This document shows, piece by piece, positions 8,601 through 62,616 of a stretch of DNA of 64,000 nucleotides. Positions within the stretch are counted from its first letter, which is position 1. Every line of letters starts with the position of its first letter. A program made the position numbers and the translations under genes. Below the pieces are notes generated by a model. It had not been told where the DNA came from. It searched no databases and saw nothing but the letters and a program-made list of their open reading frames with translations. Location of the stretch: NCBI GenBank assembly GCA_000004985.1, contig GG738896.1; one strand, 5' to 3'. This DNA comes from Naegleria gruberi (Eukaryota).

Positions 8601-8828
8601 TTTTTTTTAAAGTTATTGTAAACTGATTTGAGTTAAATAACTTCTATTTTACAAAACATCTTGTACAATTACACTTGTATTCATTCGAATAAAATAATAA
8701 GTTTCGTCCATTCTAATTTCTTTCCAGAAATATCTCAAACTCTCACGTGCATTTTCATGTATCATTCCTGAATCTCACTTTCTCTAATATATGCAAATAG
8801 ATATCATGTCAGTTAACCTTCAACTTTG

Positions 8829-9125
8829 TTACTTGATGCACTGTATAACAACCCTTTCATCTATTTTGAATCCGTGTCCAATAACGTGTCCATATCTAGT
8901 GGACATATTTGGACATGTCTCAAATTGTGCAGGATAACGAGTGTAGAATGAGGTAAATTGAATCGATGGATAGGGCCAAAATTCGACCTGAATCCAAAAT
9001 GTGACCATAATCTCAATTCCAAATTTGGAAATATTAAAATGAGTATTTATTTGCCTCTCAACAATTTGAGCTTTGGCTAATTTTTGGTAGAATGGTAAAT
9101 TGTTTGTCCTCGTTTCCTCTATCAT
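8829..9125 (-). CDS. Hypothetical small protein (98 aa)
   Basis: An isolated ORF in an otherwise gene-free 1 kb stretch. No recognisable motifs. It may be an exon of a larger unresolved gene. Confidence 0.2.
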   Translation of the reverse strand: MIEETRTNNLPFYQKLAKAQIVERQINTHFNISKFGIEIMVTFWIQVEFWPYPSIQFTSFYTRYPAQFETCPNMSTRYGHVIGHGFKIDERVVIQCIK

Positions 9126-9841
9126 TTAAAGAGCACACAACAGTTGAGTTTATATTTCATGCAAAACACAAAAAAAAACATGATTGACAATCTAATACAG
9201 TTTCTTCTGACAATTCTATTGCTACTGTTTAGTACTTTCTCGTTCTTTGAGTTGGACGAACTTGATGTGCAGGATAGAGCTCTTGTTCACATGATCAAAA
9301 GAATTGATTCATTTGATCTGATGAGTTATTAAGTTTTTTTTCTCTTTCGAATAGTTATTGTGATAGAAAACAGCAACTGTGGTTGTTGAGAACCTTCTGT
9401 GTAGAAGGTCGTTTCTCTTTACACTAACATTGCAACTAGAGAATACTACACTCTTTAGTCCTCTTTCTAATAAATCCTGAAATTATTCTAATCAGAATAA
9501 TGTTTGAAAAGCAACTTTACAATCTTTTACAGTTCTTCCAGGAATCTTTTCAATTGTAGAGCACCCTGGCTTTAAATTTTATTTAATATTGAATTAATTG
9601 AAACTCTTCAACATTCGAATAATTAAATTCAATTTGTTTACCACAAATAATTGTTAATCCTCCAAACTTGGAACTTCAATCAATCATTGTAATGGGCTTC
9701 AACAAAACCCGTCAAGGCAATGCTCCTTCACGTGTCAACGCTCAGAATTTTGTCACTGCAGTCTTTGAAATAAATTTAATTGACAAGTTGAAGCTGTCAA
9801 AATTTAAATCAAAAAAAACACAACTAAACACACTCACAAAT

Positions 9842-10959
9842 ATGTCCACTTATAAAGACGCCTCTGAAGCTGTTCTCTATGATAAGAATGGTTTGCCAAT
9901 CTATGGTATGGATTTGGAATTGGTATGTAATGATTATTCGAAACTGTTAAACTAAACAATTTTTCTTTTCCTCATTATTATTAATAATAATACAACAAAT
10001 ATTTTCCATTGCCAAATCATTAACCTCATCCATTGTATCAAACATTCCATCCACTCCACACTATTCTTTTATACGAAACCTTTCATAAATTTAAACAACT
10101 ATAGTACAAGAAACAAGCCGGTAAATACGATTCTGACAAGGAAAGAGAAGTTCAACAATGGATCGAATCTGTTGTTGGTGAAAAATTTGCTTCCAACGAT
10201 TTCCAAGAATCACTCAAGGACGGACACTTGTTGTGTAAATTGATCAACAAGATTAAACCAGGTTCCATTCCAAAAATCAACCAATCTAAATTACCATTCA
10301 TGCAAATGGAAAATATTGGTTACTTTTTGAAAGCTGCTGCTGATTTGGGTCTCCAAAAGCATGATGCTTTCATGACTGTTGACTTGTACGAATCAAAGAA
10401 TATTCCACAAGTTATTCAATCACTTTTCATTTTCGGTTCAGTTGTCCAAAAATTGCCAGGTTACAATTTGCCACGTTTAGGATTAAAGTTGGCCGATAAG
10501 AGAGAAATTGAATTCACTGAAGAACAATTGAGAAAGGCCAATGCTGAAGTTGGTCAACAATATATGGCAAGTATTAAGCACGATACTGGTCGTTCAATTT
10601 CCAGAGAAGTTGTCAAGACTCGTGATACTGGTGATGCTTCAGTTACTTCTCAATTGAGTACTGCTTCCATTAAACATGACACTGGTCGTTCAATTTCTAG
10701 AGAAGTTGTCAAGACTAGCTCTACAGGTGACAAGCGTTTCACTTCTCAACAAAATGAAAAGTCAATCTCACACGGTCAAGATAGATCTATCAGTAATGAA
10801 GTTGTCAAGATTCAACCATCTTCATCCAAGAGTCCAACAACCTCCTCTGGATCAATGGATGGTTTGGAAGAATTGGAAAAATTGGCCTCATTGAGAGATA
10901 AGGGAATTTTGACTGAAGAAGAATTCCAACAAAAGAAGAGACAAATTCTCGGATTGTAA
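9842..10959 (+). CDS. Calponin-homology (transgelin/Scp1-like) protein with a C-terminal SHOCT-like motif, 2 exons (9842..9922, 10105..10959)
   Basis: Exon 1 encodes MSTYKDASEAVLYDKNGLPIYGMDLEL. The GTATGT donor is at 9923 and the acceptor AG at 10103-10104. Exon 2 holds the CH domain (YDSDKEREVQQWIE...GHLLCKLINKIKPGSIPKIN...FMQMENIGYFLKAA...VDLYE). Three internal IKHDTGRSISREVVKT repeats follow. The tail is LASLRDKGILTEEEFQQKKRQILGL. Confidence 0.75.
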
Positions 10960-11280
10960 ATCTCATATAATCAAAGTACAAGTGAATAGAAGATTATATT
11001 CTTTTCTCAAATATATTAAATATTATAAAATAGTTAATTCAATATTAAATTTGGTTTCTTTTTGATGTAAATTATTATCGTCAATTCTGGAAATGCATTT
11101 CTTCTTTCTTCCATTTACATATCATCAATTATTAATAAATAATAATTTATTTCCGCATATTGTTGTTATTGTTTTGTAGTACAAACAAATTCATAGAGTT
11201 TAAACTACAAATCAAATTGTAAATTCATTAATCAAAAAGCAAGAATTGGGAAGTGAATATTTGTTCTTCTTGTTGATAAT

Positions 11281-11475
11281 CTATTCTTGACCAACATTTG
11301 GGAAGGCTTCCTTCAAAGTCTTCTTGTGTTTGTTTTCAGCGTGTTCAGCCAAGACTTCAACCTTTGTTGTACACAAGAAGGTTTGCTTGCAGACATCACA
11401 TTGATAAGTGAGAGCCTTTTCGTTAACCTTGGTTTGAGAGGTGTCCTTCTTGTTGAGTTGGGCCATCTTCTTCAT
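11281..11475 (-). CDS. Small C2H2 zinc-finger protein (ZNF706 / SERF-C2H2-like)
   Basis: 64-aa lysine-rich N-terminus followed by YQCDVCKQTF...HAENKHKK. The C-X2-C...H-X3-H spacing matches the ZNF706 family. Confidence 0.5.
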   Translation of the reverse strand: MKKMAQLNKKDTSQTKVNEKALTYQCDVCKQTFLCTTKVEVLAEHAENKHKKTLKEAFPNVGQE

Positions 11476-11999
11476 ATTTCTTTCTCCTATTAATTGTTGT
11501 TATTGTTGTTGAATATTCATCATTAAATATATATTATAATTCGTTTTTGGTTGTTGTTATTATTGTTCAAAAGCAATTCAATGAATATGATAAAACGTTT
11601 TTTCATAATTTCATCATCATTCCATTGTTTTTAAATTTGTTAAACGCATCGGATGGTAATATAAATGCATGAAATGCAAATTAATAATAGAGAGTTGAGA
11701 GAGAACGTACTCTTTTGCTGAGATTGGGCAGAATTTCCTTTGGCCATTGTTGTTGTTATTGATCTAAAAGAACGTTAAAATATTTTTTTAATAAAATTTT
11801 TTGTTGGAGAAATTTTCATAGTTTTTTTCTTTCTTTTCAAAATTTCCTTTTTTAAAACCTTAACGTTCATTTACCTCAATGAATGGTTGAGTATTTTGAA
11901 CAGAATGGGATGTAATTGAAATGATACATATCATTTGAAGTAATTAATTGGTTCTATTGAATAATTTTCATTTTGAAATTTTGAATATTTCAGTGATAT

Positions 12000-12598
12000 T
12001 TATTTACTGAAATATTGAGCTATGGTTTTGACTATATCTTGAGATTCCTTTTCTGAGTTTACTTGATATAAATGTTCGTAAGGGCCTTCATATTGTTGAG
12101 GTGGTTTAAATCCTTTAGCAAATTCATCCACTACCTCATCAGCCTTATCAGCTTGAAGTGTTGGATGGTTCTTTCTCGATTTTACATTTAATTTACATTG
12201 TTCAGGTGTTGTTGCAAACCAAACCAAGTCAATATGTTTCACTCCCAATTTCTTAGCTTCAGTAATCCACATTTTTCTATATCAATTTCAATATCAAAAT
12301 GTCATCGTTATTGTAAATTATTCAATAAATATACTAACCTATCCTTCGGATGAATATTACATCTATCTAATATTACTGACTTGTTATGTTTAAACGATTT
12401 TTCCATCACCTTTTTGCATTCCGAAGCATCTCCCAAAGTATCCTGATTGACTCGCACAAAATTTGTTGATTTCTTTTCTAATTGTTCCGAAAAGGTTGAT
12501 TTTCCAGATCCTGGAAATCCACAACAAATAATTAAATAAGTTTCTGGTGTTACTTTTGCTGTGCTACTACTCGATGATGATTTTTTGGTCATTTTCAA
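12000..12598 (-). CDS. P-loop kinase, polynucleotide-kinase (PNKP kinase-domain)-like, 2 exons (12598..12339, 12276..12000)
   Basis: Walker A LIICCGFPGSGKSTF. Motifs VNQDTLG and ILDRCN are as in PNK-type kinases. The minus-strand GTTAGT donor is at 12338 and the AG acceptor at 12277-12278 (62-nt intron). This joins ...HPKDR to KMWITEAKKLGVKHIDLVWF. Confidence 0.6.
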
Positions 12599-12883
12599 TG
12601 AAGTGTAATAATTATTGGATGAATTTTTATGTTTTGTTATTTTTTTGAGTTTGAATTTTATTTTTAGTTTTATCGTGAACTTTTTGAAACCACATTCAAG
12701 TTCAGAGTTGAAAAATAGTCAAAACTGAGTTTGAATGAATTGTAATTATTATTTAATGGTATTTTGTTAAAGCTTTAAATATTATTACACATGGTGGATT
12801 GTTCTAGTGTGAAAATAGTACACGTGTCGTAGAACTCTGAGTTCTGCTGTTGTTACAATTTCCAGATTTCTTCCTCTTTCTGT

Positions 12884-12897
12884 GAAGGCGCCAAAAT
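12884..12897. promoter_or_regulatory. E2F-like GC element GAAGGCGCCAAAAT, 43 bp upstream of the ATG at 12935
   Basis: GGCGCCAAAA is a half-site of the palindromic TTTGGCGCCAAA motif. It occurs 4 times in this window, always just upstream of a gene start. Confidence 0.4.
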
Positions 12898-12934
12898 TAA
12901 ATGAATTAAAAAACAAATAATTAAAAAAAATAGG

Positions 12935-15508
12935 ATGATGTTTACAAGACAAACTGCCAGAAAATCAACTGGTGGAAAGGCACCTCGCAAACAAGTTGGT
13001 TCAAAATCAGCTTTAGGATTAAATTCTTCTAATGCGAGAAAATATCAAATTAATATTAGCGAGTTGAAGGCTAAACATCAACAGCAACTTTCTGATCAGA
13101 ATAATTATAATTTGAATGATGACGCTGATTTGAAGAAATTTATTGATGATCAATATGAAAATTGTGATGATTTGGTTAAAAAGTGGATTCACGATGATTT
13201 GGTCAATCAAAAAGAGGAGATTCAACAATCGGATAGTGATGTAGAGCTTGATACAAGATTGTTGAAAGAATTGGATGAAAATACCAAGTTTGAAATTTTG
13301 CAATTCATTCCAACATTTTCACCAAATGTTGCCAATCAGTCCTTGACTGAAGAAAGAAATATTGAAATGAATCTCGATACTGAATTGATTAGATTTCACA
13401 AAATGAGATTAATTAACAAGAGTTTCAACAAGATTATGATGAAGAAAATTCTCACTCTCAAACATATTACCTTGAAAACTGCTACCAACACTTTAAATTA
13501 TATTAGTTTGCTCTCTATTGCTCAGAAGGCATACAAACAAGCAATGATGATGAACTCGAACCATGATCTAAATATTGATAATGTTTTATTATATAACCCT
13601 TATTCATCAGTAGAAATAGTTGACAACAACCAAAGTTTTGGTTTCAATAACTTTGGTGGTTTTTCAACAGGTCTCAATAGCTTTGGTGGTTTCTCAACAG
13701 GATTTGGTACTTTCGGTACTACAGCAAGCAGTATACTTCAAAACACCAATGAAATCCCATCCGATTCGAGAGAACTAATTTCTGAAGATTCTGAGGATGA
13801 GCTTATTGCAAAATTGTATTTAAAGAGAGAGGACAAGAAAAATCCCCAAAAAGTAGATATTGATTACATGCGTGAAGAGGTTTATTTATACACACATGCA
13901 TCACATACCACTTCTCAAAATCAAAGTAGTTCATATCCACCTGTTATTATGACAGTCAATGAAACTATTGAAACTTTAACTTTGGTAATGGAAGATCAAT
14001 ATCTAGCCAAAGATATTGTAGGGTTTTTTTCTAAATTGAAAAGACTTAATATTTTCATGAATAATGCAACTTTTTATTACGGAGAAGTATTCAACTTGGC
14101 TTCAGAATCTCTAGAGGAAGTTTTAGTTTGTGGTGCTGGTTTGTTAGAACTTCTTATCAACCAACCATATTTGCTAAGCTCTTTTTCTGGGGCTTCTTGT
14201 CCAAAGATGACATCAGTTACATTTTCTCCTCTACTTCCAAATATTTATGCACCAGAAAATATTCTTGATACCTACTTTTCTCAACTACAAGTCACTAATC
14301 CAACCATCCACAAGCTTAATATTTATGATAAGATTGGTAGAAATGAATCCGCATTTATCAAATCTGAAGTATTTACCACTACCAATCCTGTTCAAAGAGA
14401 GCTAAATGTTTACTGTGTTCAATACAAGTCACTTGTAAACATTGATATCTTGGAGGAACTCTATGATATATTTGGAGACCGTTTCGTGAAAACCGTAATG
14501 CCATTCATGATACTCGGATATAATTGCCCTGTAACATTGGAACATGACCAATCACTTTGGAAATCTCATTTTGTGGAACACATGAAAAAGTTCAAAGATA
14601 CTGCAAATTACTTGTTCAAGAAGAGGAAATTTCCTGTTTCAAACGTGTTGCTTTCATTTGACATTATGACAAATAATGTTTTAGAACAGAACATCAAGGA
14701 CAGCAAATTACAATACCTCATATACCTATGTAACCAGTATCAAAATTCTAAACTTTTAAGCTATCTACCTGAAAACAAACAAACTCTATCAACAATTATT
14801 GCCTCAATTTATAGAGGATGGAATTTCACAAAATATACAAATGATCTCTTGGAATTCTTTGTTAGAGCCTTTTTTCACAGAGGAGTTTCTGCCATGTTAC
14901 ATAACTTTAAGTATGATGAAAAATTTATTGTATCTCAAATTGAGTATTTGGCTACTAGTTACACGATTAGTTCTACGATTAGTTCTAGGGCCGTTATTAC
15001 TGAGATAATTATCCACCTCTTCAGAAATAACTCAAAGGTTCTCTACTCTCTTCTTGCAAAACAGGTGGAAGTTTCTGATAATAACACTACATTTACAATT
15101 CCATTTATTGCCTTCCTCTTCGGAAAGGCAGATTGCTATTTAATTGCTAAACTATTTAATGAAATGGACATGGAAACATTCAATTCTTTAGGTCAAAACA
15201 ATAGAGGCGACAACATTCTCCACATTTATGTTTACTTTCAACAAGAATTTAATTACCTCATCTTTTATTCCATACTAAACAAGAATCCAAACTTGATTAA
15301 CATGGTCAATCACAAATTGCAAACTCCGCTTCATTACTTGATGACACTAAATGACAAGAGATCACCTCTTTTACTTCCAGAAATCAATCAACTTCTTAAA
15401 CGTAATAATATTTTGTTAGATATGAATGTTACCGATTATATGGAACAAACTCCTATGAGTATTCTTAAATCAGAAGAATATGAACATGAAGATATCATGT
15501 TTGAATAA
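12935..15508 (+). CDS. Large protein with a histone H3 tail-like N-terminus, FG-type repeats and C-terminal ankyrin repeats
   Basis: 857-aa single-exon ORF. Residues 3-21, TRQTARKSTGGKAPRKQ, match the H3 tail ARTKQTARKSTGGKAPRKQ at 17 of 18 positions. FGFNNFGGFSTGLNSFGGFSTGFGTFG are nucleoporin-like FG repeats. The C-terminus holds ankyrin repeats (GDNILHIY..., QTPLHYLM..., QTPMSIL). Confidence 0.7.
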   Translation: MMFTRQTARKSTGGKAPRKQVGSKSALGLNSSNARKYQINISELKAKHQQQLSDQNNYNLNDDADLKKFIDDQYENCDDLVKKWIHDDLVNQKEEIQQSDSDVELDTRLLKELDENTKFEILQFIPTFSPNVANQSLTEERNIEMNLDTELIRFHKMRLINKSFNKIMMKKILTLKHITLKTATNTLNYISLLSIAQKAYKQAMMMNSNHDLNIDNVLLYNPYSSVEIVDNNQSFGFNNFGGFSTGLNSFGGFSTGFGTFGTTASSILQNTNEIPSDSRELISEDSEDELIAKLYLKREDKKNPQKVDIDYMREEVYLYTHASHTTSQNQSSSYPPVIMTVNETIETLTLVMEDQYLAKDIVGFFSKLKRLNIFMNNATFYYGEVFNLASESLEEVLVCGAGLLELLINQPYLLSSFSGASCPKMTSVTFSPLLPNIYAPENILDTYFSQLQVTNPTIHKLNIYDKIGRNESAFIKSEVFTTTNPVQRELNVYCVQYKSLVNIDILEELYDIFGDRFVKTVMPFMILGYNCPVTLEHDQSLWKSHFVEHMKKFKDTANYLFKKRKFPVSNVLLSFDIMTNNVLEQNIKDSKLQYLIYLCNQYQNSKLLSYLPENKQTLSTIIASIYRGWNFTKYTNDLLEFFVRAFFHRGVSAMLHNFKYDEKFIVSQIEYLATSYTISSTISSRAVITEIIIHLFRNNSKVLYSLLAKQVEVSDNNTTFTIPFIAFLFGKADCYLIAKLFNEMDMETFNSLGQNNRGDNILHIYVYFQQEFNYLIFYSILNKNPNLINMVNHKLQTPLHYLMTLNDKRSPLLLPEINQLLKRNNILLDMNVTDYMEQTPMSILKSEEYEHEDIMFE

Positions 15509-15617
15509 TTGAAACTTAATGATAGCAAGCATTTCTTCCAAGCTAATAAAATTTTTACAGTAAGGATTTCATGTATTTAATTGTTTGTTGGGCAACCAGA
15601 ATTAATCGATTAATTTT

Positions 15618-15784
15618 ACACTTAAAGGAATCCGCAAACCAATAATGAACCAAAATGAAGTGCATTAGCCGGGAGTCGAACCCGGGTCACCAGCTTGGAA
15701 GGCTGGTATGATACCGTTACACTACTAATGCTTTCTTGGTTAATTCATTCCTTAATGTTCACGATTAAGCACGATATCCCATTC
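15618..15784. repeat. Left arm of an inverted repeat carrying tRNA-Gly(TCC) plus conserved 5' and 3' flanks (partner at 17211..17377)
   Basis: The reverse complement of 15732-15784 (gaatgggatatcgtgcttaatcgtgaacattaaggaatgaattaaccaagaaa) aligns at about 85-90% with 17211-17263 (gaatgagatattgtgcttaaccgtgaatattaaggaatgaaataagcaagaaa). The 3' flanks also align (atgcacttcattttggttcattattggtttgcggattcc versus atgcatttccttttgattcttggtttgcagattccc). Confidence 0.7.
15661..15731 (-). tRNA. tRNA-Gly (anticodon TCC), copy A
   Basis: The reverse complement GCATTAGTAGTGTAACGGTATCATACCAGCCTTCCAAGCTGGTGACCCGGGTTCGACTCCCGGCTAATGCA is 71 nt. It matches eukaryotic tRNA-Gly-TCC (GCCTTCCAAGC anticodon arm, GGGTTCGA T-loop). 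Confidence 0.9.
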
Positions 15785-15912
15785 TGTTTATTCCTTTTTA
15801 ATCAATTTCTGGAACTTTCATTCTTAATTCGAATTGAACATAACGGTACTATAGCATTAGGCCTACTATTCTTGAATTCTCCTGGAGGGAATTTACATCC
15901 CATTTAAAAACA

Positions 15913-17165
15913 ATGAAAGCAAAAAAATTTCAAATCAGTAAAAAAAAAATGGAGCTATTGGAAGAATCATGCTTGCTCTCAGTGATTAATCTTCCAAAAG
16001 AGATTTGGCTCTATCAAATATGTGAATATTTAGATATTCTTGATATGATTTTTTCGCTGGGGAGAGTTTGCAAAGCATTTCGATATGAATTGGCAAACGA
16101 ATATCTTAAAAAATTCCCAAAAACAAAAAAGAAGGATTCGAATGATCAAGTCAGTTCGATAGATAGCTTTTCAATGAGAAGAGTGAAATATATTATCAGA
16201 GATGAATTACTGAAATTTATTGTAAAGTTTGAAAAATCTCTGACGAATGAAGGAATTTTCGAAAAGAAGGACACGAGCCATGTATCAGAACAGTCCAATG
16301 CTCAACAAAATGATCCAAAATCAACAAATGGTGGTCCCACAATAGAAAAAGAACGTTTAATGGAATTATTCCAATCAAGAATGGAAATATTCGACTTTTA
16401 CTTTTCACATTTCTATAAGAAATTACCAAGTGACGCTAGTGAATCAGCTATCAAGCAAACTTCCATTGCTTCTTCCCTATTTAAATCTGAAAATCAATTA
16501 GTTGAATCCTCATCAGCAAGAAACACTGAAATGAAAAAGATTTTGATTATCGGCAATGGTGGAGGTAAGTTTTCATTGTTAAATATTTCTCTAAATATTT
16601 AAAGTTGGAAAAACAACATTTTGCAGATCAATGCAGGATTTACCACTAAACGATAACCGAAATCTACCAACTATTGGTTGTGAAATCAACTCTTACCGAT
16701 TGAAAATTGCCGGTTTGGAAGCAAATATTAATTTATGGGATACAGGTATGTTCCACACTTTTTAATTGAGATTTTTATTAAAATCAAACAGTTGGTCAGG
16801 AAAAGTTTGGTTTTCTTAGAGATACCCTTTATGTGAATACTTCAGTGTGCATCATTTGTTTTGATCTTACCAGTAGATATTCCTACAAATCTATTCTGAA
16901 TTGGTTCAGGGATATCAAAAGAGTGGAACCTGAATGTGAAGTGATATTTGTCGGAACGAAACTAGATCTAACCGACAATCTGAAAGTAACACCCAAGCAA
17001 ATTACTTTTCCAATTAACAAGTATTGTCCATATATTGGATTGAGTAGTCTTCAACAGATTAATAATAGAGCAGTGTTGTGGTATGTTGCTTTTATGAATC
17101 TGTTTGTTTCCCATTTGAAAGGTATTCATGAAACTCTCATTTGTGATAAAGAAACAATAAATTGA
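15913..17165 (+). CDS. Chimeric F-box / Ras-superfamily small GTPase protein, 3 exons (15913..16564, 16605..16745, 16792..17165); 3' end uncertain
   Basis: The N-terminus LPKEIWLYQICEYLDILDMIFSLGRVCKAFRY fits an F-box. Exon 1 ends KILIIGNGG. The GTAAGT donor at 16565 and the 40-nt intron continue VGKTTFCRSMQ...NINLWDT, completing the P-loop GNGGVGKT. A second 46-nt intron gives VGQEKFGFLRD...SVCIICFDLTSRYSY...VIFVGTKLDL (G3, G4 motifs). The C-terminal tail after NKYCPY is unusual and may hide another intron. Confidence 0.65.
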
Positions 17166-17210
17166 TTTAGACTTACCTTAGTGTGGAACATTAAGGTTTT
17201 ATAATAAATA

Positions 17211-17377
17211 GAATGAGATATTGTGCTTAACCGTGAATATTAAGGAATGAAATAAGCAAGAAAGCATTAGTAGTGTAACGGTATCATACCAGCCTTCCAA
17301 GCTGGTGACCCGGGTTCGACTCCCGGCTAATGCATTTCCTTTTGATTCTTGGTTTGCAGATTCCCTTATTATTGTTA
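17211..17377. repeat. Right arm of the inverted tRNA-Gly unit repeat (partner at 15618..15784)
   Basis: See the left-arm entry. The two arms face each other across the F-box-GTPase gene at 15913..17165. Confidence 0.7.
17264..17334 (+). tRNA. tRNA-Gly (anticodon TCC), copy B
   Basis: The 71-nt sequence is identical to the other three copies. Confidence 0.9.
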
Positions 17378-17960
17378 CTGTGGTACTTAAGCAAATGAAA
17401 ATTTTCTCGCGAAAAAATATATATTAAAATACTTCAATACTCTTCTTTGACTCCTTTTGCATATTGGATTATGAACTTTGATTACCATTATTGGTGTTGA
17501 TGTCTAATGGTGAGCTAGTTGAGGGATTGTCTCTTTCAAAATGTGATATTGAGCATATTCATCCTTAATAGAGAGATACCAAGCCGAATCAATTGGCCGT
17601 TCACACACTTGTAAGCATTATTAGACCGTTAGTAGTACATGTACTTGATAAACATGGTAACTAATCGATTGGATTGTTAGTTAAACGAAACTGCTCACAA
17701 CCCATCAAAATATTCGAAAGGTGAAACAAACATCATTTCTGAAATATAGCACGTTTCTTTCGGCGATTTCACATGCATTATTTTGTGAGAACTTTCTATT
17801 TAAGTGCAACATCTTTTTAAATGGAAAGTGATGCCCGAGATGAAATCTCTGAAAAAATAGGTTACTTTCCAATAATTGAAATTTGTAAACGAAAGCACGA
17901 ACAATAACTTTCCACCTGAACCACACAAGAATCTCTTAAAAAAAACAATAACACCCAATC

Positions 17961-19160: not shown

Positions 19161-19175
19161 TTTTGGCGCCAAAAG
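19161..19175. promoter_or_regulatory. Palindromic E2F-like element TTTTGGCGCCAAAAG, 11-25 bp upstream of the ATG at 19186
   Basis: A perfect 14-bp palindrome TTTTGGCGCCAAAA lies within an AT-rich intergenic region. Confidence 0.45.
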
Positions 19176-19185: not shown

Positions 19186-20760
19186 ATGTGGAATGCGAAT
19201 TCTCCTGCGCCATGCTCATCAGGATCATCGGTTGATCAGCAGCAATACAGTCCACTTCCCATCGCCTCTATTCAACAATTTACATCAACAGTAACTCATC
19301 ACGAATTTGTAATGCACTCATCAGAATTATTTGTCGAATTATTTTGAATTCCTGATCGTAAAAAGAAGAATAATTCTGATTATTTGGATGCATATTTCAA
19401 GTCTACAAAGTCTTTTGATGCAAACAAGTATCAATCACAGATTAATCCACAAATTGTACGTCAAGTCCAAATATCAAGTAATGGTATCTCAGATCATTGT
19501 ACAAATGTGCGTTCGTGGTTTATTGAAACCATCATGATGAGAATGGGTATTTTCCTACCTGAGAACATTTCGTTGGTGAAGAGAATTGGAGAGGGAGCTT
19601 ATGGCAGCGTGTATAGAATTGGTAAAGATAAAGTGTTGAAGATTGCTAAAGATGGTGAAGCCATCAAGAAGTTTGATCATCCATTATTGTTGAGTATTGA
19701 GAGGCTTTTTTGGTATGAAGCTGAGAAACTCTTGTTGATTGTTTCTCCATACTATGAATTGGGACATTTGAGAGGTCAATTCACATTAGGTCAATATTGG
19801 TCAATTCTTTGTAATTTGACAAATGCTCTCAAGTATTTACATTCCCAACAAGTTGTTCATAGAGATATCAAGCCAGCAAACATACTTGTAGAAAAAAAGG
19901 ACAAATTTGAAGTGAAAGTTGTTTTAGCTGATTTTGGATTGGCGAAATCGTTCGATTCTTGCAGTGCAGGAAGTGTAGGAACGACCTACTTTGTAGCTCC
20001 AGAATTAATGAAAGGTTATGATGGAGAACATAGTGCTAGAAGAAGAGTTGCCAATGAGAAGAGTGACATTTTTTCTCTTGGAAAGACTATTAGCGTTCTA
20101 ATTTTGAATGACAAACCTGAAGATTTGGAATTTAAGAAGGGGAATTCACTCACCGAATTGCTTAATCGTATGATGAAGTACAAGCCAGAGAATAGACCTT
20201 CGACTGATGAAATTATTTCAATATGTGAAATGGAGATTTCAAAGCTTTCAGAGACTGATTACAATGCAATTTTCAAATTATCCGACAATGATATTGAAAT
20301 ATTTGATGAAATGAGCTTTTACACTGAAAGTAGTTTGAGTGATGGTTTGTTGAAAATGTTAATAAGCGGAGAAAGTTCTCAAAGTCAATCTGCTGTTAAA
20401 CATTCATACACGTTTGATCTTCACGATGACGGTGTTGTAAATGCCAAGAAAATAATTCACATCAAGTGCACACCAGAGGCAAGATTGGCCATCGAATCAA
20501 TCTATCTCAGAATTTACAACACCAAATTCAATACAGGACTCATTGATGTAACCAATTGCTTGTCCAAATCAGTTAGAGAAATATCCAATGATAATGAAAA
20601 GAAATATGCCATCTCTGGTTCACAAAAACAATATCTCATTCCTGCCAAGTCGAAATATCAAAATGAAAAAGGAAAGGACACTATTGAATTGTATATTAAT
20701 AATAGGGATGAACATGTGGCTTCAGCCAATTATGTCGCCAAGAATAATAAAAATAATTAA
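19186..20760 (+). CDS. Ser/Thr protein kinase; the core exon 19366..20760 is certain and the proposed 5' exon 19186..19308 is tentative
   Basis: The kinase core is LVKRIGEGAYGSVYRIGKDKVLKIAK (GxGxxG and VAIK-like), HRDIKPANILV, DFGLAKS, GTTYFVAPE. The TTG-initiated ORF at 19384 has no upstream ATG. An upstream ORF from 19186 (MWNANSPAPCSS...THHEF) ends at a GTAATG donor at 19309. A 57-nt intron to the acceptor AG at 19364-19365 (or 19367-19368) keeps the frame. Confidence 0.6.
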
Positions 20761-38132: not shown

Positions 38133-38559
38133 GATTCTATACACTTTATTGTTGTATTCTTCTTCTTCATTGTAAATATTTAAAAGATAATTCAGGATAA
38201 TCATACTTTTCCAGAATATCGACACCATCTGATGTATTATACAAAGTATTGAATGGGAATTCACCGAATCTAAAACTTCCACTAAGAATTTTCAGTCTGA
38301 ACAATAGAACCTAAATATTCCATTTGAAGCTATTTGATTGGATTTTACAATTCCAAACAAACATCAAATGGATTAATCGATTTTCCCGCCTCAATCGGAA
38401 TTATTTACAACTATTAATGGCCATTGAGAGGATTCAATACTACACTTTAAACTTTCAGTTGAGTAAGAACTTGTTGTATTATGAAGAGTGACTTGCTTTC
38501 TCTCTTCACTGACCCAATCTCACTACAACTTCTGACACCAGACAGCTGACATCTACGGC

Positions 38560-40123: not shown

Positions 40124-40399
40124 ATTGATGACTAGTTTTTGTATATAAATCACCTCCATATGCTACAGATGTATATTAATGTGGTATAACCAAATAATAT
40201 TGAGTTATACTTTATCAACTGTGCAATAATTGTGTATAGTTCCAATAATAATAAATCAACCTATTTGTAAATCTTGTTTTGTTTTTCCCGCCAAATTTTT
40301 TATAAAATTATAAAAAAATGCCATTACTTGCATCCCACAACAACATTGTGTTCAATTTGAAAAGCATCGGAAGAGAATGAAAAACATGCTGCTTATCTA

Positions 40400-45562: not shown

Positions 45563-46830
45563 TTATAATTGTTCTTCTTGTTGTTTTTGTTCTTCAGTAG
45601 TGTATTCATAAACATAATCAGTAATAATTTCCTTAGCTTCATCAGATAAATATTTAGAAATTGCTTTCTGGTCAACTTTAGCGAGAGAATCCCACTCATT
45701 CGAATGTTCCTTCTTGAAATCTGCCAAAATATCCTGAACAAACAAAGCCAAACACTTATTTCTCAATTTAAATGAAGTGATAATATTACCAATTTTGGAA
45801 ATGGCAGATTCCAATCGATTATCATTCAAATATTGAACTATTAAATCGAATACTGGAGTGGAAACAGATTCATTATCAAAGGTTGGCTTTTTGGTTTTTT
45901 TTCTAGGTCTTGGTGGCTTTTTTGGTTGCACAACTTCCTTAAATGCTTCATTCTTCTTCTTGATAATAAATCGTTCTCCCTTTTCCTTTGTGAACATATC
46001 TCTGATTGGCTTAATAACCACTCCTTCACAGATATTTGGACATGATTCAACGAGTGGGAGGTTGTAGAATAATTGTGGAATTTTGGTTGGATAATTGCAA
46101 TCGTATTCTAAACATTCTTCCAAAGTTCCTCTCATCACTTCTTTGGCATATCGAGAAATTCCACATTCAGTGAGTAATTGAATCATCTTGTCATAGGCCA
46201 AATAGAATCCTTCTTCCTTCTTTGTTTCTACATTTAATCCAAATACATAGACATCGAACATATAGAAATCATAATCAGGAGTATAATACACATGTTTTTG
46301 AATTGGATATCTTCCTTTTACATTTTCTATTTGATCATGAGGATATTGACCTCCAAAACTATTTCAAGAATTCCAAAATAAATAAATTTTACACTTAAGG
46401 ACACTTACATTTCTCCATAGAAATTAGCTCTTCTCACCTTAAAATTATCATTCGAATAGATATCACAAATACTCTTAAAAACCTTCTTTATCTGTTCCTC
46501 ATATCTATTCCTCACAATCTCCACAGCCTCAGGAAAGAAATCGTCATCTTCATGAGGTGATTTTTTCTTCTTTTGTTTTTCCTCTTCATCCAATCCAACA
46601 TATTGTCTTCGGGATGCAACCTGGCATTGAATATCTTCCACAAGACACGAATTGGCAGTCTGATAATTATCCCTCCACATTACAAAACTAAAATTACATC
46701 CATGAATCTTTTCAGAGACAACCCAAGGAATTGATGGATCATAATTCTCATCACGGATTAAATTCTTGGCAAATTCTTGATAGTGATTCTCGATGGAACT
46801 GTACGCTTTGAAATGATGTTGATTCTTCAT
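45563..46830 (-). CDS. Rnl2-family ATP-dependent RNA ligase-like protein, 2 exons (46830..46409, 46358..45563)
   Basis: Motif I VVSEKIHGCNFSF is like KIHGTN of T4 Rnl2 and kinetoplastid REL1. The minus-strand GTAAGT donor at 46408 and AG acceptor at 46360-46359 (50-nt intron) join ...ANFYGE-I-FGGQYPHDQIENVKGRYPIQKHVYYTPDYDFYMFDVYVFG. Confidence 0.65.
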
Positions 46831-46875: not shown

Positions 46876-46889
46876 TGTTGGCGCCAAAT
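46876..46889. promoter_or_regulatory. E2F-like palindrome TGTTGGCGCCAAAT, about 50 bp upstream (minus strand) of the RNA-ligase ATG
   Basis: TTGGCGCCAA is a perfect 10-bp palindrome. Confidence 0.4.
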
Positions 46890-53037: not shown

Positions 53038-56000
53038 TTATTCAACCTTAGATGATTGCTCTGATTGTTCTAGAGAGAGGGATCTGAAAATAGGGAAGAA
53101 GGAAGTAACATCATCATTGTCTTCACATCGATCGTAAATGTATTGTTCTGTACCTGTGAATTCAGTCACTGATTTTTGGTAGAGGTAAATTAAAAAGTAG
53201 ACATAATTCCACAAGTAGTGTTCCTCCTTGACATGCTTTTCAAAGGTGATACCTTCATTGGCTCTTGTATCGAATTTAGTTCGTTCCAATCCACAAATAA
53301 AACACTTATCTCGAATGTCCTTCTTTCTGTCTTCTCTTTCATTTCTCAGTACTTCAAACGAATCGAGAATGACACCAAACACAACGTTAACAAGTAACAC
53401 AATAACTATCACTAAAAAGGAAAGGTCAAGTATGGCTCTCTGAACTGAAACATTTGGATCATAAATATCCTCCCAAAAAGATTCTCCTCTAAAGCCATAA
53501 TCCAACATGGTCACATAGCAAGCTAACATATCTTCACATGTCTTGTCGCCTGTCTTGGAGATTTTAAAATCTGAAGAAAAGAAGGTAAAATAGAGTGTAC
53601 CAAAGAAGAATAAGGCAATACACAACAACATTCCTGTAAAGAACAAACGTTTCACATTCGAAGTAACTGATTTCAACACATCGGTCAATGACTTGAAGAT
53701 GTAAACCATTTCAAAAAGCTGTATCGAGTAAATAATTGGAGTTATCAACAATCCAATCACAGAGACTACAATGTAAATAATAAAATACCAAATTTGAGAA
53801 TCTTGTATGGTATATAAAAAGCATTTGGTCATAAAATCAAAATCTCTTGGAATTGAGTCCCACGTTTCGTTTTTCTTTAGCTTGAATCGTTTCTTCACTT
53901 CCAACGTCAAGAAGAGTGATACATAAATGACAAATAGAATTACCAGGAAAATCAATTGTGTCACACCAACAATAATAAGAATTATATCACTTGCAAGATT
54001 TCTAGGTGCTGTAGTTTTGGTGAGAGCATATACATCAAAGTCACTGCCAGGTAAAGGTATTTGAGAATACTCTGTTGTTGCATAAATTCTCTTAAATGTT
54101 CCCAAAACAATAATATTAATAATAACAGAGAGGAAGAATGAAGACAATCTCAAGTAATCCCACCAATTGGCAATATATTCCCATGATGCTGTTTTAACCT
54201 CTTGTTTCTTCTTTTTCTTTCGTTTTGCTAGCAAATTGCTGGTTGTGGCAACGAGAGACATTGAAGGCAAAAGATTTTCCATTTCCTCCTCTGGTTCCTC
54301 TTCTTCTTTCTTGTTGAGATTCGGAATAGTAAAAGTCTTTTTCATATTTTCATAGTGACACATTTCCACATAGAATGTACTGAATGTGTCATTGTACAAT
54401 TTCCTAACTTTTTCTTGTGGAGTCATTACGTGCAACGAATTGGCATAGTTGCTTCTTGCCTTATCGATAATATTGTTACATATTGTTGGTTTGGGAAAGT
54501 AGATCTTTTCAAGTACGTTATTTCTCAATACTTCAATGCTACCAGTTCTTTGTTTGAAATAAGAGAGCTCCTTTGAATTGGTTTGGAAAAAGTTGGCTAC
54601 TCTTGATTCCTCTTCCAAAGCTTGAGTACCCTTTCTGAATTCAGTCTCACTGTCCCTGATCATGGAGAGAAGGAAAAAGATGTGAGTTCCCAAGTCATCG
54701 TATTGCAATCTAATCTTCTCGAGATTGTCCTCCATATAGTCGTCGACACGGATTGGCTTCTTTGAACTCTTCTCAGATTGATACAAAACATGGAATCCAA
54801 AGTCTTTACGCATTCTCTTTTTGAGTCTTTCAAGATCATCACAATCATCATGGTTATTACCCGATAGAGTTTCGAACAATCTCAAAATGTACAATAATTT
54901 TTGTTCAAAATCATCCAAATTCAAAGAATTTTTCATGAATTCTAATGTGACTGTGTTTCTTCCTTCCAATAGAGATATTAAGAAGAGTGTAATTTCCTTC
55001 TTGAGGTCAAGCTCTTGTTCCTTCAACAACTTGCTGTCATCGTAGGTCTTACTCATGATTTCATTGATAAGTCTTGGATAAATCTTATTGGATGTACCAA
55101 TTAAATTTTGGTTAAAGACAGCAGGTCCTTGGACAAATTCGGTCAGGGTCTTAAAACCTTGGATGGCTACTTGAACATTGTCTGCATCCAATTTCTTTTC
55201 CAAAGCAATCAAATATTCAATAATTTCCGTAATTAAATCAAAGCTGAAAATATTTCTTGGTTGATGTTTCAATAGGGCTTGATTTTTGGTATTATGGCCT
55301 TCACACAATAATCTCAAAAATTCCATAGTGTTAAAAATGAATCCCTTTTCTACAAATTCCACACCAACTTCATCTTCTTCGTTATCATGGTCAGCATTGA
55401 GGTTAGTTGTAGACTTTTTCTGGTTAGCTAGTGCCAACTCCTTGTCTCTCTTTTTCTTCAAGTGATTCTTCATTTGTTTGATTTCAATCTTTGAGAGACG
55501 GATTCTGTCTCTAAGAGACATGAAAAATTCGGTAGAGTCTTGATCTGTAAGAAGCGAATAAATATGATTCTGAACGTCAAGATCTCCGTCATTCAATATT
55601 AAAATACCAAGCTCCAAAGCTGATTTTGCAATTTGATGGTGGTTAGAGTTGAGGAATTCAATAACTACCTCAGGAATTTTCTTTTCCACCAAATCTAATT
55701 TAAGAGTTGATTCTTCGGTTTGTTGGTTTTGCCTTTCAACAATACTCTTCAAAATATCCATACCAAAGAGTCCTACCTTCATGTTCTGAAGAAGTAAACC
55801 AGAACTATTCAAGTCACGTAATACATTGACGAGTGTTTTGATAAATCCATCATATTTGATAAATATGGCAGCAAGCTCTGAAAAGTTGGAAAAGTTTCTA
55901 TTAATCTTGGAAATTATTCTGTCTTTCAAGTACTTTTTGTATGTGTTGTGGATAAGTTCGTCCTTCTCGGTACTGGTTGATGTTTGTATTCTTGATCTAT

Positions 56001-59000
56001 GTACCTTGGCTTTAGTGGCCTTATTTGAAATGAAATTAGAAATTGCTTTCTGACTAGTTGAAGACATACTTCTCTTCAACATGGCCTGAATACATTTGAG
56101 AACTTTATCCCTATTCTCTGGATTTGGTGTATGTTTGTGAAGTTCTATGAGTTTTATCAACAAATCTTCTGCAATATCCAACTGTTCTTTTGTCAGATTT
56201 GGAGGTGGGAAGTGGAGATGGAAATAATCTCTCACACAAGGAATCATAATATCAAACAAATAGGTATTATCAACTTGATAGGTTTCTTGATCTTCCTCAC
56301 TAGGTCCAACGACTTTTGGAAGTGCTACAGAGTATGTTTTCGAAGATCGTTTGGAAGCAGTTGTTGACAATCCACGGTTTTTGGTTGGAGTAGCAAACAG
56401 TGAAGTGTTTGAGAGGGTTTTGCTTGGTGTTGTTGGGGTTCGAGTATGGGCATGCATAATACTTTGTCTTTCACCTTTTTGTGTGGATAAAATCAAGTCG
56501 TTACCATCTGATTCATTTGAATAGGTCATTTCTAACACTTCCAATTCAGTAACCATTTTAGAGAATAACTTGAAAAGCATTGGATGATGAACATTTACCA
56601 TCTTGCTCTCAGATTCTGTAGAGTCATCTGATGCCTTTTCAACATTCAAGTAAATTTCATCAATAACTTTAACCAATGGATTTCTCAATACAGGTAGAGT
56701 ACAACAAATAACTTGTTCTAAAAGTTCTTCATAGCTGTAGAGGGTTTGTAATTTAAGCTCACTCTCTCTGTTTTTACCATCAGCAAGAGAGGCCAACAAG
56801 TATAAAAGGGCAATGTGATAATTTAAAATACCATCTGGTTCAGTTTTGTGTTCACCTTTGATAATTCTTTGATTACGTTCTCTGAGACCTTCTTCGTCTT
56901 TGAAAAGAATCATAATGTCCTTCTTTCTTTCGAGCAGATATTTGGTAATGAGTGATTGGTTTCGTTTGATTGGATTGCCATTATTTGTTCCCAGAATGAC
57001 ATGCAAGAACAACAACATGAAAGAGCAAGGTTGCTCAGCAATTTGGTCAATGTAGTGTTCGATTAATTTTTCTTCAATAGTACTGCACAGACCTCTATTG
57101 TCTCTTACCATTTCACAAAGGAGAATGACAATCTTCTTATCTAGACTTCTATTCTCACCAATAGTGTGAATAAAGAATTCCAATTGTTTGAACATAATCT
57201 TTTGATTGTCTTGATTTCCTCTAACAAAAGCAATTAAAATATCAATACCAATCTCTTCAATTTCCTTGCTCACAATATAATCCTTCTTGAGGAATGTGAG
57301 AATAATATCATAAATGAAGAGATTTCTCACTATTCTTTGTGATCTTTGACCATTCTTCTTGATATCTGATAGGATTTCATTGAGAGCTTTTAGGACTTTT
57401 TTCTCTTCCTGTTCTGTGAGTCTTCTAGTACCAAAATAATTGCTTTGACCATAACCAAAAACAGATCGCAACTCAACTACCTGTGAAAGTAGCAAATCGT
57501 AGGATTTAGCCATTTCTCTCGAAACGATAAGTTCAATCTTTGGAAGAACTTCACATAATTCTTGAGCAGATCTGTACTTTCTAATTAGTAAATCAAGGCA
57601 GGTTGTAGCGAGTTCCTTATTTTCATATTTGGTCAGCGAAAGAATTTTAACATCGAATCGATCCATCTTGTTGAAAATAACATCCTTTTCGAGAATATCT
57701 TTGATTACAGCATATTCATTAGAGTCAATTTCGGCAAGTCTTTTCTGTTGTAAAGCTCTATTGTCCATTGGTATCACCTCTTGTTCTCTAAGTACAGTCT
57801 CAATCTCTTCCTCTCTGTATTTCTTCCAAAAGAATTGCAAGAATTTTGTCACTCTCTTGTCTAAAATAATGTCTAGAATCATGTGGAAGATGGAAGCAAT
57901 TTCAATTTTGATCTTCATGAGGGTTAAATTTTCTTCTACGTTTTTGTGTCTTTCTTCCTCACTAAGAATTCTACCATCCTTCTTGTCATTATCTCCTCTG
58001 AGCATATCAAAGAGAGAATTCAACAAATCACCCTCCTCAAAGTCTATCAATGTAAGAACTCCAAATTCCAACATTCTCTTACACATAATTACAACGTATA
58101 ATGTAAAGTTGTTGTGATCCTTCTTTTCTAAAGACACATCCAAGCTAACATTCTCTCTAAGGAATTTCCCTAAAAAATCTTTGATTTCTGCCAAATCCTT
58201 TGAGTTGCCGTCTTCTTTTGATCTTTGATTGAGAGTACTGGTTTTTCTGGTGTAGTCAATCAGTGGTTTCTTTTCTCTCTTCTCCGTATCAATGAAAGTT
58301 TGGATCAAAAGCTTTACAAATGATGTTCTGACGGCTGGTGTTAAATTCTTATCAGAGACACATTTGTGGACAACTTCGTAGGTGAACAGAGAAACAACAG
58401 ATCTTCTCGCATCCTCAATTTCTTCATTTCTTCCTGTACAGAGGGCAGCAAAAAGACGAATTTCCTCTTGGAAGAAGATGAGTTGTTCATAATTTGGTCT
58501 TGTGTATCCATTGTATGTATCATCTGTTGCAGACTGAGAGAAACTAATCAAGTCTATTTCATCATGATTGACTTCTACCACAACCTTGTCTTCATTGTTA
58601 AGCTTTGGAATGATAAAAACTCTTCTCAATTGGTCCTTATATTTTGAAAAAAGCAAATTACCAATATATACCTGATTTTTCACCACAGTTTTACCTTCAC
58701 AAATGATCAAGCTAGTCAAAAAGGATAAATAGACAGCCTTCTTCAAGCTCTTGGAACTTTGTCGCATACCAATCTTTGATGTGTTTTCAAAGAGAAGCTT
58801 GACGAAAAAGTCAATTTGTGACTCGGTAATCTTGTTCAAAAGTGGATAATTGTTGGATAAGATTTCCAACAGAGCTTCACTTGCAGCAATGCTATGTTCA
58901 ATCAGAGTTTGGATAAAGTTGATATATTGTGCCATGTAGAGACCGTTAGATTCGTTTGAAAGGACAAACTGTCTAATGAGTCTGAAGGAGTACTGAACCA

Positions 59001-61385
59001 CATCAAAATAAAGTGCCTTCTCTGGCTTTTCATAAATTAAAGATAAATCCTCAATTGATAAATATTTCTTCAATAATAGAGTGATATTTTCCATTACAAG
59101 ACCAATGACTCCCATATCTCTGATGATATTTTGTCTAAGTTTAACAGGAATACCACCTCTTGTTAGAGGGTCTGTCTCTTCACTAATAGTACAAAATCTA
59201 ATGCAATTTGCCAATGCACCAATGTAGAGTTTGATATCTGACTTGTCAATGAGCGAGTCGTCCAACTTGGATTTGAAATACCTAATAATTGGCATGTAAC
59301 CAGCTACGGTGAGTGCATCATTCAAATCCTCATGTGAAACAGCTGAAAAATTGAAAACATCCTGTTCAAACATTTTCAAAGATGAAGTTACTCTCTGATA
59401 GGTTGAGTCAGCAAGTGGTCTAGATATGTGTACCCAAGAATTAGTGGCTTCATGCCTCAATCTAAAGTAATCGGTGGTTTGAACTTTCTCACCCTTCTTT
59501 TGTCCTCCAGTCGAGTCGGTGAAATGGAAGACACTGGTTGGTATTGGTTGTGTAATCAAGTCATCAAAGTTTTCAACATGAAGAGTCCACAATGAATCAT
59601 TTTGTGTTACGCTGCCTGATCTATTTCCTCGTGGAGTGGCTACAATTGAACTTTTTCTAGGTGCATTAACTCCAAGTTGGCTCAAGTTATCACCAGATGT
59701 TGGTGTGTTTTCTCGTTCATATCTTTCTTCAATGGCATCATCCGCTTCAATGGTTATTCCTTTAATAGGACGAATCACCATGTATTTTCCACTTGCCAAG
59801 TGTCTTAGACGGAATTTCGAAGTCCACTTTACAGTACCAGAACAGCTAGAGTCTAAAAATTCCAATTGCCACAAAGTTTGAGGACTCACATAGTCAGAAG
59901 ATTTAGATTCCATACCAGCCAAGCTTGTATCCTCAGAGTCGTTGATTTGTAGATTGCTTGATTTCTTGAAAAATTTAATTCTATCCGTTTTTTCATTCAC
60001 TCCAATATATCCTTCCAATTCCTTGTGGTATATTCTCATAATGGTGGATCCTGCTTTGAGTTTTCTATTTGTTTCATCATTTTGTGGTGTGTATTTTTGG
60101 TAGAGTTTCATTCTCCACCTAGTGAATGCAGTACTATTCGCCATGTTAACTTCTCTTCTACTATCGTAGGAATATTTTCCTCTATTTCGTGATAATTTTA
60201 CAGCTTGTTGAGCTAATTCTGTGTATGAAGAATTTTCATTCACTCTTTGATAGGTACCATCATTGTCTTCTCCAGTTGTGTATCTATAATAGGATAAGTG
60301 AATAAATTGGTTGGACTTTTTGTTGTAAAGTCTAATTTGATCAGTGAGTTTAACTTGATCTCCATCCTTTTGAAAACTGGAATATGGCATTATTTGAAAG
60401 TATGAATAGGTAGATCCTTCTTTATCGAGGGCCAATCTCATACAATCCTTTTGCATTTCTGCAGATTCTCTTGCTACTGTCAGATAGCACTGTGTTTGTA
60501 CATGATACAATTGTACTGTTTGTCCATAGACAACTGGTTTTGAAAGGTTTCTTTGTGATTCCATCCTATTTTGTTCAAGTTCTCTTTCAGCTCGTTGTTC
60601 CAATTGTTGATATTCTGTTGAGAAGGAGGCTGTCGAAGGCATTACATTATTCTTGTTATCCTTTGTTTTTTTGTTGGCCTCTTTCAACTCTTGTTCTTCT
60701 TTGAAGGTTTTGAACTTTTTCAGTGCTGAATAACTCTTTGGATGACAAATCTTGAAAACACAATTAGAAAAGTTTGGTGTAAAGAAGGAAGAATCCTTTT
60801 CTGAAATGACAGATTCCACCAGACCACATCTAGCTTGTGGTTTGTTTCTAAAATATTGATGAAATAATAAAAGTAGTATTTAACAGAGAATAAAGAAGGT
60901 GAATAATTAGTTGAATATTTAAACAATATTTACCCTTTAACATTCTCGGAACAAGTCAAATTAATACCATCCACACTCAAGAACCCAATCATTGAATTAC
61001 CAGTACTTTTTGATGACAAATCCGTATAGAAGGAAATTTCCTCTCCAATTCTCAAATAATCTCCCTTCTTTTTCATCATCATATTATTCATCCACAATTG
61101 TTGCTCATCCTCCTTCACATCACTCATCACATCTTCATCCTCATCATACAAATGATGATCAAAGCCTTGTTGTTGCTGTGCAGAAGAGGATGATGATGAC
61201 GAATATTCGGAATGTTGTTCATGATGATGATTTGATGTGGCGCCATTATTTTTAACGGCAGAAGTGGCGCTTACCGATACGATGAGTTGTTCTTGTTGTT
61301 GATGAAATAAGAGTGCATAGTCAAAGAGGTGTTGTGATGATGGTTCGGAAGAGTTGCTATTGTTATGATTATTGGATAGTGTCAT
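53038..61385 (-). CDS. Inositol 1,4,5-trisphosphate receptor (IP3R/RyR superfamily) homolog, 2 exons (61385..60934, 60847..53038), about 2750 aa
   Basis: The exon-1 tail LRIGEEISFYTDLSSKSTGNSMIGFLSVDG is like the IP3R N-terminus SFLHIGDIVSLY...GFISTLG. The minus-strand GTAAAT donor at 60933 and AG acceptor at 60849-60848 (86-nt intron) continue into NKPQARCGLVESV...FSNCVFKICHPKSYSALKKF (like [20 protein letters not shown]). A six-TM C-terminal channel region follows. The signature tail is CFICGLERTKFD...FEKHVKEEHYLWNYVYFLIYL (IP3R: CFICGLERDKFD...EEHNMWHYLCFIVLV). Confidence 0.85.
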
Positions 61386-61568: not shown

Positions 61569-61584
61569 AATTTTGGCGCCAACT
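61569..61584. promoter_or_regulatory. E2F-like palindrome AATTTTGGCGCCAACT in the divergent promoter between the IP3R gene (minus) and the 61744 gene (plus)
   Basis: TTTTGGCGCCAA lies 190 bp upstream of the IP3R ATG (minus) and 160 bp upstream of the ATG at 61744 (plus). Confidence 0.4.
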
Positions 61585-61743: not shown

Positions 61744-62616
61744 ATGAAATTAACAATTCGATCCGATAAACCAATTGTAAATTTGTATAATAATTTCCCA
61801 AAAGATTTAAGGGAACATTTGGAAAAGTGGGATTTAGGTACTGAGAGTACTTTCTATGAATCGTTCTATGTGGATTTGGATATGAATCAACATGATGAAG
61901 CATTAGTAAATACCGAATCTAAGGAACTGCTCCTCAAAAGGGCCCTTGCAAATTCTGATCAAATCAAGGAACTGGCTAATGAGTACTTGAATAGATTGAA
62001 AGAGAGATTTATTTGCTGTGGAGCTCTGCATCAATTAGATACTGTTCAAGATGTGTCACCTATGAACATCAAGTTGGCAGACATGACGTTAATTCAGAGA
62101 GAATTTCTAACCAATGAGTCGTTGTTATACTTGAAATCTCTCAACACCAGAAAATGCTTAGACGAACAAATTGACTCTGAAATGTATGTCTCTGATGAGT
62201 ACAGAAAGGCTATGGCATACATGTTGTGGGCTGAAGGATGTACCTATTACAATGAAGATACTTTCATTGAGAATTGTAACTTCCAACAGTACGGACTAGT
62301 GGAGGACTCTTGGACTAATATTTGTGCTCGAGAGCTACTGTTGCATATACATGCAAGATTGGTTATAGGAGGAAAATTTGGCCAGTATGAAGATAATTTG
62401 ATGCCATATTTTAATAATACCAAGTTACTATATAAGAACATTGTCTCCGTGCAGAAAGTGAGCAGTGTTGATTCAAATCAAAGTAGTCAAGGTTTTTCCA
62501 TTGCATCCAAAGCGTACAAATGCCCAGTCACCAACGATCTGGTGGATAAGAGTTACTTCCTCCTAATTGTTCATCCAATAGATAAGAAGGTTACAATCAT
62601 GTTGCATGCAGAGTGA
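61744..62616 (+). CDS. Hypothetical protein (about 290 aa)
   Basis: The ORF-track start at 61642 is TTG. The first ATG at 61744 gives MKLTIRSDKPIVNLY.... No recognisable domain. Confidence 0.45.
   Translation: MKLTIRSDKPIVNLYNNFPKDLREHLEKWDLGTESTFYESFYVDLDMNQHDEALVNTESKELLLKRALANSDQIKELANEYLNRLKERFICCGALHQLDTVQDVSPMNIKLADMTLIQREFLTNESLLYLKSLNTRKCLDEQIDSEMYVSDEYRKAMAYMLWAEGCTYYNEDTFIENCNFQQYGLVEDSWTNICARELLLHIHARLVIGGKFGQYEDNLMPYFNNTKLLYKNIVSVQKVSSVDSNQSSQGFSIASKAYKCPVTNDLVDKSYFLLIVHPIDKKVTIMLHAE

Follow-up and report, generated by a model that had tools for sequence, protein, structure and literature searches.

We found a recurrent GC-rich motif in a 64-kb stretch of Naegleria gruberi DNA (hereafter the window), and we regard its copies, the GC boxes, as candidate E2F/DP binding sites with a probability of about 60%. 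The motif is non-random and close to promoters. Most likely, it marks an ordinary, previously undescribed set of E2F-type promoter elements. We consider E2F/DP sites to be the best explanation because the motif matches the E2F1 consensus and because the genome encodes a factor with an identical recognition helix.

GC boxes in the window

The original prediction listed four GC boxes, at 12887, 19161, 46878 and 61571, and all of them are present (Table 1). They had been described as one palindrome family. This is accurate for three of them: the exact 12-mer TTTGGCGCCAAA occurs only at 19162, in site 2, while sites 3 (46877) and 4 (61572) each differ from it at one position. Site 1 (12884), in contrast, is a half-site that has the E2F core TTTGGCGC and three mismatches to the 12-mer. 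The shorter word TTGGCGCCAA is located at 19163, 46878 and 61573. GGCGCC with T/A flanks occurs at 12887, 19165, 46880 and 61575, and a 10-bp perfect palindrome exists in three of these four flanked sites. A fifth GGCGCC, at 61239 (TGTGGCGCCATT), lies within a coding exon and lacks the T/A flanks. We also identified two loci that were absent from the earlier list of four, at 40284 and 38382, both having an asymmetric E2F core (TTTCCCGC). At 40284, TTTCCCGCCAAA is directly followed by TATAAAATTATAAAAAAA, a TATA-like run.

Table 1. Motif sites and neighbouring genes in the window
Feature	Position	Strand	Description
Site 1	12884..12897	-	GAAGGCGCCAAAAT context; GGCGCC-bearing GGCGCCAAAA at 12887; minus strand reads TTTTGGCGCC
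Site 2	19161..19174	.	Perfect palindrome TTTTGGCGCCAAAA; E2F core on both strands
Site 3	46877..46889	-	GTTGGCGCCAAAT; in gene sense ATTTGGCGCCAAC; TTGGCGCCAAAT at 46878
Site 4	61571..61583	+	TTTTGGCGCCAAC; divergent promoter of IP3R and CFAP300
Additional E2F-core site	38382..38393	+	TTTCCCGCCTCA
Additional E2F-type site	40284..40295	+	TTTCCCGCCAAA; E2F7/8-like flavour
NAEGRDRAFT_72319	12000..12592	-	176-aa stand-alone P-loop kinase (AAA_33), like the PNKP kinase domain; one 62-nt intron
NAEGRDRAFT_72320	12935..15508	+	857 aa; N-terminus mimics the histone H3 tail
NAEGRDRAFT_72323	19186..20760	+	Ser/Thr protein kinase; generic CAMK-like similarity
NAEGRDRAFT_52138 (XP_002672691.1)	45563..46830	-	405-aa Rnl2-family RNA ligase; one 50-nt intron
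NmrA-like ORF	47016-47960	-	N. fowleri orthologue 57% identical
IP3/ryanodine-receptor-like channel gene (IP3R)	53038..61385	-	Exon 1 = 60933-61385
NAEGRDRAFT_72345 (CFAP300)	61744..62616	+	Cilia- and flagella-associated protein

The window is gene-dense, with 31-37% GC and short introns. Its NmrA-like ORF has 100% identity to a predicted N. gruberi protein, and five more of its proteins agree exactly with N. gruberi NCBI entries, all from a single scaffold of 331,721 bp. The original prediction had put the chance expectation of the box at about 0.01 occurrences, and the rarity holds up: TTGGCGCCAA is found three times against an analytic expectation of about 0.016, with no match in 100 dinucleotide-preserving shuffles. 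GGCGCC occurs five times (0.52 expected). The degenerate core TTTSSCGC gives seven matches at six loci where 1.4 matches are expected, and none of the 100 shuffles reached seven. The list of enriched non-coding 8-mers is dominated by tRNA-gene words; when these are set aside, GGCGCCAA is the top over-represented 8-mer in non-ORF sequence. ORFs of at least 100 aa leave 21% of the window uncovered, and this part contains all six loci. Five of the six lie within 250 bp 5' of the first ATG of such an ORF (binomial P = 3.6e-4, the 250-bp upstream zone being 14.7% of the window), a count that is generous because 40284 enters only via a probably spurious antisense ORF. The sixth locus is site 2, which is 11 bp 5' of the true start codon (ATG 19186).

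Match to the E2F consensus

JASPAR/HT-SELEX gives the 12-mer TTTGGCGCCAAA as the consensus for human E2F1 (PMC11580471, PMC5449588), and TTTSSCGC is the classical in vitro E2F consensus (PMC3069401). The E2F1 12-mer is identical to that of site 2, and the 8-mer core is found in all six loci. The box had been called a textbook E2F/DP site, and its sequence agrees with this description. According to one paper, which applies the E2F consensus to the ciliate Tetrahymena, this consensus has been largely conserved in evolution. Like animal and plant E2F/DP sites, the Naegleria sites combine this sequence with promoter proximity in an organism that encodes E2F, DP, an E2F7/8-like protein and RB. They differ from the animal and plant sites in that their neighbour genes are not the classical G1/S set and in that they are predicted from sequence. 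Sites of the atypical E2F7/E2F8 proteins (DEL in plants) have the form TTCCCGCCAAAA. The TTTCCCGCCAAA at 40284 fits this form (compare the E2F8 structure, entry 4YO2), and the N. gruberi DEL has two DNA-binding domains; the four originally listed sites, however, have a GGCGCC core rather than CCCGCC. Another parallel is the putative E2F/DP-CHR-like motif of Tetrahymena and its DREAM-like complex, where an E2F consensus was likewise inferred in a distant unicellular eukaryote. The Tetrahymena work drew on ChIP peaks and knockout expression data, whereas ours draws only on the DNA.

E2F, DP, DEL and RB in N. gruberi

In the E2F family, RRXYD is the base-contacting motif. The N. gruberi E2F is NAEGRDRAFT_54558, which has the PF02319 and PF16421 domains and is 100% identical to the sequence of Medina et al. 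2016. In an alignment of its DNA-binding domain with that of human E2F4 (1CF7; E = 7e-25), a 24-residue stretch with RRXYD is identical between the two proteins, and the 13-residue recognition helix is unchanged. An unchanged DNA specificity is therefore the simplest expectation. The original prediction had proposed looking for E2F/DP homologues in the proteome, and the outcome is positive: the organism has E2F, DP, RB and the two-domain, E2F7/8-like DEL (Medina et al. 2016, supplement files 4 and 6). The DP recognition motif in the Medina 2016 sequence is RRRVYDALNVL. E2F orthologues are also found in N. lovaniensis, N. fowleri, Willaertia and Acrasis.

These proteins suggest how the boxes might work. 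A Naegleria E2F/DP heterodimer would bind the GC boxes in or beside the core promoters of a subset of genes. The E2F subunit would read the T-rich half (TTTGGCGC), and either orientation would be possible at the fully palindromic sites. The functional unit is probably the 8-bp core rather than the full palindrome. The two-domain DEL may also bind the boxes, although sequence does not decide which family member would pair with which site. Depending on the proliferative state, RB would repress, or E2F would activate, the adjacent genes.

Genes flanking the GC boxes

The flanking genes were identified by Pfam matches, splicing and exact look-ups. Site 1 stops 38 bp short of ATG 12935 of the gene for the H3-tail protein; relative to the divergent PNKP-like kinase gene (ATG 12592), it is about 295 bp upstream. 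Between the end of site 2 and the ATG of the protein kinase NAEGRDRAFT_72323 there are 11 bp. Site 3 is 47 bp upstream of ATG 46830 of the Rnl2 ligase, in a 182-bp spacer past the stop codon of the NmrA-like ORF. Site 4 is 185 bp from ATG 61385 of IP3R and 161 bp from ATG 61744 of CFAP300. The site at 38382 is 218 bp 5' of ATG 38612, the start of a gene for a predicted secreted protein. In the searched literature, the locus tags of the flanking genes appear only in the Rnl5 paper.

None of the canonical E2F targets (such as MCM, PCNA, RNR, ORC/CDC6 or a cyclin) is found among these genes or elsewhere in the window, and the flanking genes together do not resemble a G1/S regulon. The original prediction of an E2F-like cell-cycle regulon is thus supported as to the type of motif and its position near promoters, but not as to the genes. 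NAEGRDRAFT_72323 was rejected as a cell-cycle kinase, its similarity to CAMK, CDPK, RAD53 and Myt1 being generic. Two of the flanking genes, those of the PNKP-like kinase and the Rnl2 ligase, encode nucleic-acid end-processing enzymes. These two would fit an S-phase or repair programme, whereas the other genes have no obvious fit. The two genes are 33 kb apart with a GC box upstream of each, and the healing and sealing enzymes would therefore share a candidate regulatory element. N. gruberi has an unusually large set of RNA-repair enzymes (PMC4408790), and XP_002672691.1 is among the five Rnl2-family RNA ligases listed for this organism (Unciuleac and Shuman).

A more ambitious version of the E2F reading is that E2F/DP/DEL would control a broader, non-canonical set of genes (CFAP300/IP3R, Rnl2 and the PNKP-like kinase) and be a candidate factor for amoeba-to-flagellate differentiation. 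This would parallel the control of centriole amplification by E2F4/5 and multicilin in the multiciliated cells of animals. Naegleria is reported to have no RFX, FoxJ1 or XAP5, and the regulators of its cilia genes are reported as unknown (PMC12183034). We consider such a role in the flagellate programme highly improbable, because only one of the six loci adjoins a cilia gene.

We noticed further properties of two flanking genes. The first 20 residues of NAEGRDRAFT_72320 reproduce the N-terminal tail of histone H3 over about 15 positions. No Pfam domain was found in its 857 aa, and the 'ANK' label that it had initially been given received no confirmation from Pfam. The protein is a member of a family of 28 cluster representatives, and several of these open with a perfect H3 tail. 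The family members are 550-860 aa long and have a conserved F-box-looking block after the H3 tail, with no Pfam-detectable domain; related loci are L011:6001-8614, L012:471-2972 and L014:1172-3319. Our literature search found nothing on such H3-tail-bearing proteins. NAEGRDRAFT_72323 has an in-frame TGA at 19345-19347, codon 54 from ATG 19186, and for this reason the NCBI model of the kinase starts 351 bp downstream (19537). In a 97.7%-identical strain (L015:1-420), GGA is found at this position and a single open frame runs from the position equivalent to 19186. The ancestral start of the gene is ATG 19186, and the TGA is either a nonsense mutation specific to this strain or an error in sequencing.

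Comparison of strains and species

A second N. gruberi-like strain is represented by contigs of ENA ERZ929261 that share 97.7-97.8% identity with the window. On contig L015 of this strain, site 2 is the same as in the window, while the adjacent upstream spacer has several substitutions and indels. Site 4 reads TTTTGGCGCTAAC in contig L009: one substitution abolishes the palindrome and keeps TTTGGCGC, and the spacer has about 10 other changes. This substitution fits constraint on the 8-bp core, and neutral drift fits equally well at about 2% divergence. Contigs L013 and L014 do not carry the motif or do not reach site 1.

Among other species, N. lovaniensis has a homologue of the H3-tail gene, of uncertain orthology at 29% identity, and the 113 bp of spacer upstream of it contain no E2F core. 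In N. fowleri and N. lovaniensis DNA totalling about 57 kb, TTTSSCGC was not found and GGCGCC occurs once, 141 bp 5' of a gene. We also looked for signs of E2F autoregulation: the E2F gene of N. lovaniensis lacks an upstream E2F core, and a TTTGGCGC in the Willaertia locus was rejected as a regulatory site because it sits within coding sequence. The other match in this locus (Willaertia magna, L005:15203-15256) is a single case of TTTGCCGC located 46 bp 5' of a gene whose product has an MGMT-like DNA-repair domain (PF01035); the divergent gene next to it is 66 bp away. Synteny with N. fowleri was of no help: the NmrA locus (L001) has no adjacent Rnl2 gene, and none of the neighbouring proteins of the window has a match there. 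Relatives of the Rnl2 ligase in a metagenome scan have only 24-27% identity and are of no use for promoter comparison.

Other explanations for the motif

The symmetry of the boxes raises the question of another factor, lineage-specific or uncharacterised, which would bind the symmetric GGCGCC core with T/A flanks, for example as a homodimer, and whose target would resemble an E2F site by coincidence. E2F/DP binding would indeed not require the degree of symmetry of the 10-bp perfect palindromes in three of the four GGCGCC sites. Two further points agree with such a factor: cell-cycle genes are absent from the candidate targets, and similar amounts of N. fowleri and N. lovaniensis DNA did not show the motif. 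However, the coincidence would have to produce a 12-mer that is exactly the E2F1 consensus in an organism whose cognate factor has an unchanged helix. The half-site at site 1 and the strain variant of site 4 keep just the E2F core, and the cores at 40284 and 38382 are asymmetric. We therefore judge this explanation unlikely, although it is the one that survives best beside E2F/DP binding.

Two known factors with similar sites were considered and rejected. NFI sites have the spacing TTGGC-N5-GCCAA, and to our knowledge NFI is confined to animals; the required 5-bp spacer is absent from the boxes. The other is RFX, which came into question through the cilia gene CFAP300: the RFX X-box (GTNRCC-N0-3-RGYAAC) is likewise a palindromic promoter element, and one Naegleria site adjoins CFAP300. 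However, the half-site here is GCCAAC rather than RGYAAC, and Naegleria is reported to lack RFX (PMC12183034).

The placement of the boxes could also point to a core-promoter, transcription-start or 5'UTR element that acts by its position or in RNA, and not to a switch regulated by E2F. The original prediction placed the boxes 20-190 bp upstream of gene starts; this holds for three of the four (38, 47 and 161/185 bp) but not for site 2, with its gap of 11 bp. Three sites end only 11-47 bp before a start codon; the transcription start may therefore coincide with them or be upstream of them, and A-rich or TATA-like runs follow several sites. On the other hand, only about 6 of the roughly 35-40 promoters in the window have the motif, its distance from the ATG ranges from 11 to 218 bp across the loci, and its orientation varies. 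A loopless 10-nt palindrome has no obvious RNA structure either. Because clustering at the transcription start is also typical of animal E2F sites, this explanation and E2F binding cannot be told apart by position. Taking these points together, we regard a purely positional element as quite improbable.

Finally, the boxes might have no function and be products of chance or compositional bias, or remnants of dispersed repeats. The window is small (64 kb), one site is polymorphic between strains, and no cross-species conservation was seen at the N. lovaniensis H3-tail homologue. Nevertheless, the counts were reproduced in none of the 100 shuffles, and all sites are non-coding and near promoters even though coding sequence is GC-richer. 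In addition, the window has only about half of the expected CpG (observed/expected 0.51), and a word that contains CpG should arise by chance even less often. The original prediction itself named a dispersed repeat as the finding that would speak against it. An all-against-all blastn of the ±200-bp flanks gave no similarity longer than 15 bp, and the matches were centred on the motif. The sites are thus not copies of a dispersed repeat or remnants of a mobile element, because their flanks share nothing beyond the motif. Absence of function is accordingly very unlikely in our estimation.

Other features of the window

The first 23 kb of the window contain seven tRNA genes (3309-23064), which are interspersed among protein-coding genes. 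Four of them (15660, 17264, 20793 and 22993) are copies of tRNA-Gly(TCC) with identical Rfam scores. Downstream of the site at 40284, an ORF-less segment at 40340-40555 has 46% GC between flanks of 25-32% GC, ends in TTTTT and resembles a small RNA gene; Rfam gave no match for it, and its folding energy shows no excess (z = +0.7, +1.3). Two proteins encoded in the window have unusual domains. One is a calponin-homology protein (10105-10956, plus strand) with a C-terminal SHOCT domain (PF09851, E = 3e-10), and the other is a 167-aa Cass2/GyrI-like protein (34581-35081, plus strand; PF14526, E = 1.5e-19). SHOCT and Cass2/GyrI-like domains are mainly bacterial, and these genes may therefore have been acquired horizontally.

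Implications

Few promoter elements are better known than E2F sites, and a specialist would find the proposed mechanism unsurprising. The practical value of the finding is modest, and it arises because no Naegleria promoter motif or cis-regulatory element is described in the literature that we searched. If the boxes are real E2F sites, they would provide a first handle on promoter architecture in a heterolobosean. The E2F-RB module has been inferred for the last eukaryotic common ancestor from the distribution of its proteins, Excavata included (Medina 2016). Real E2F sites in N. gruberi would extend the E2F-RB circuit to the level of the DNA site in Discoba. They would also supply a sequence tag to predict proliferation-linked genes in N. 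gruberi as well as in N. fowleri, a pathogen.
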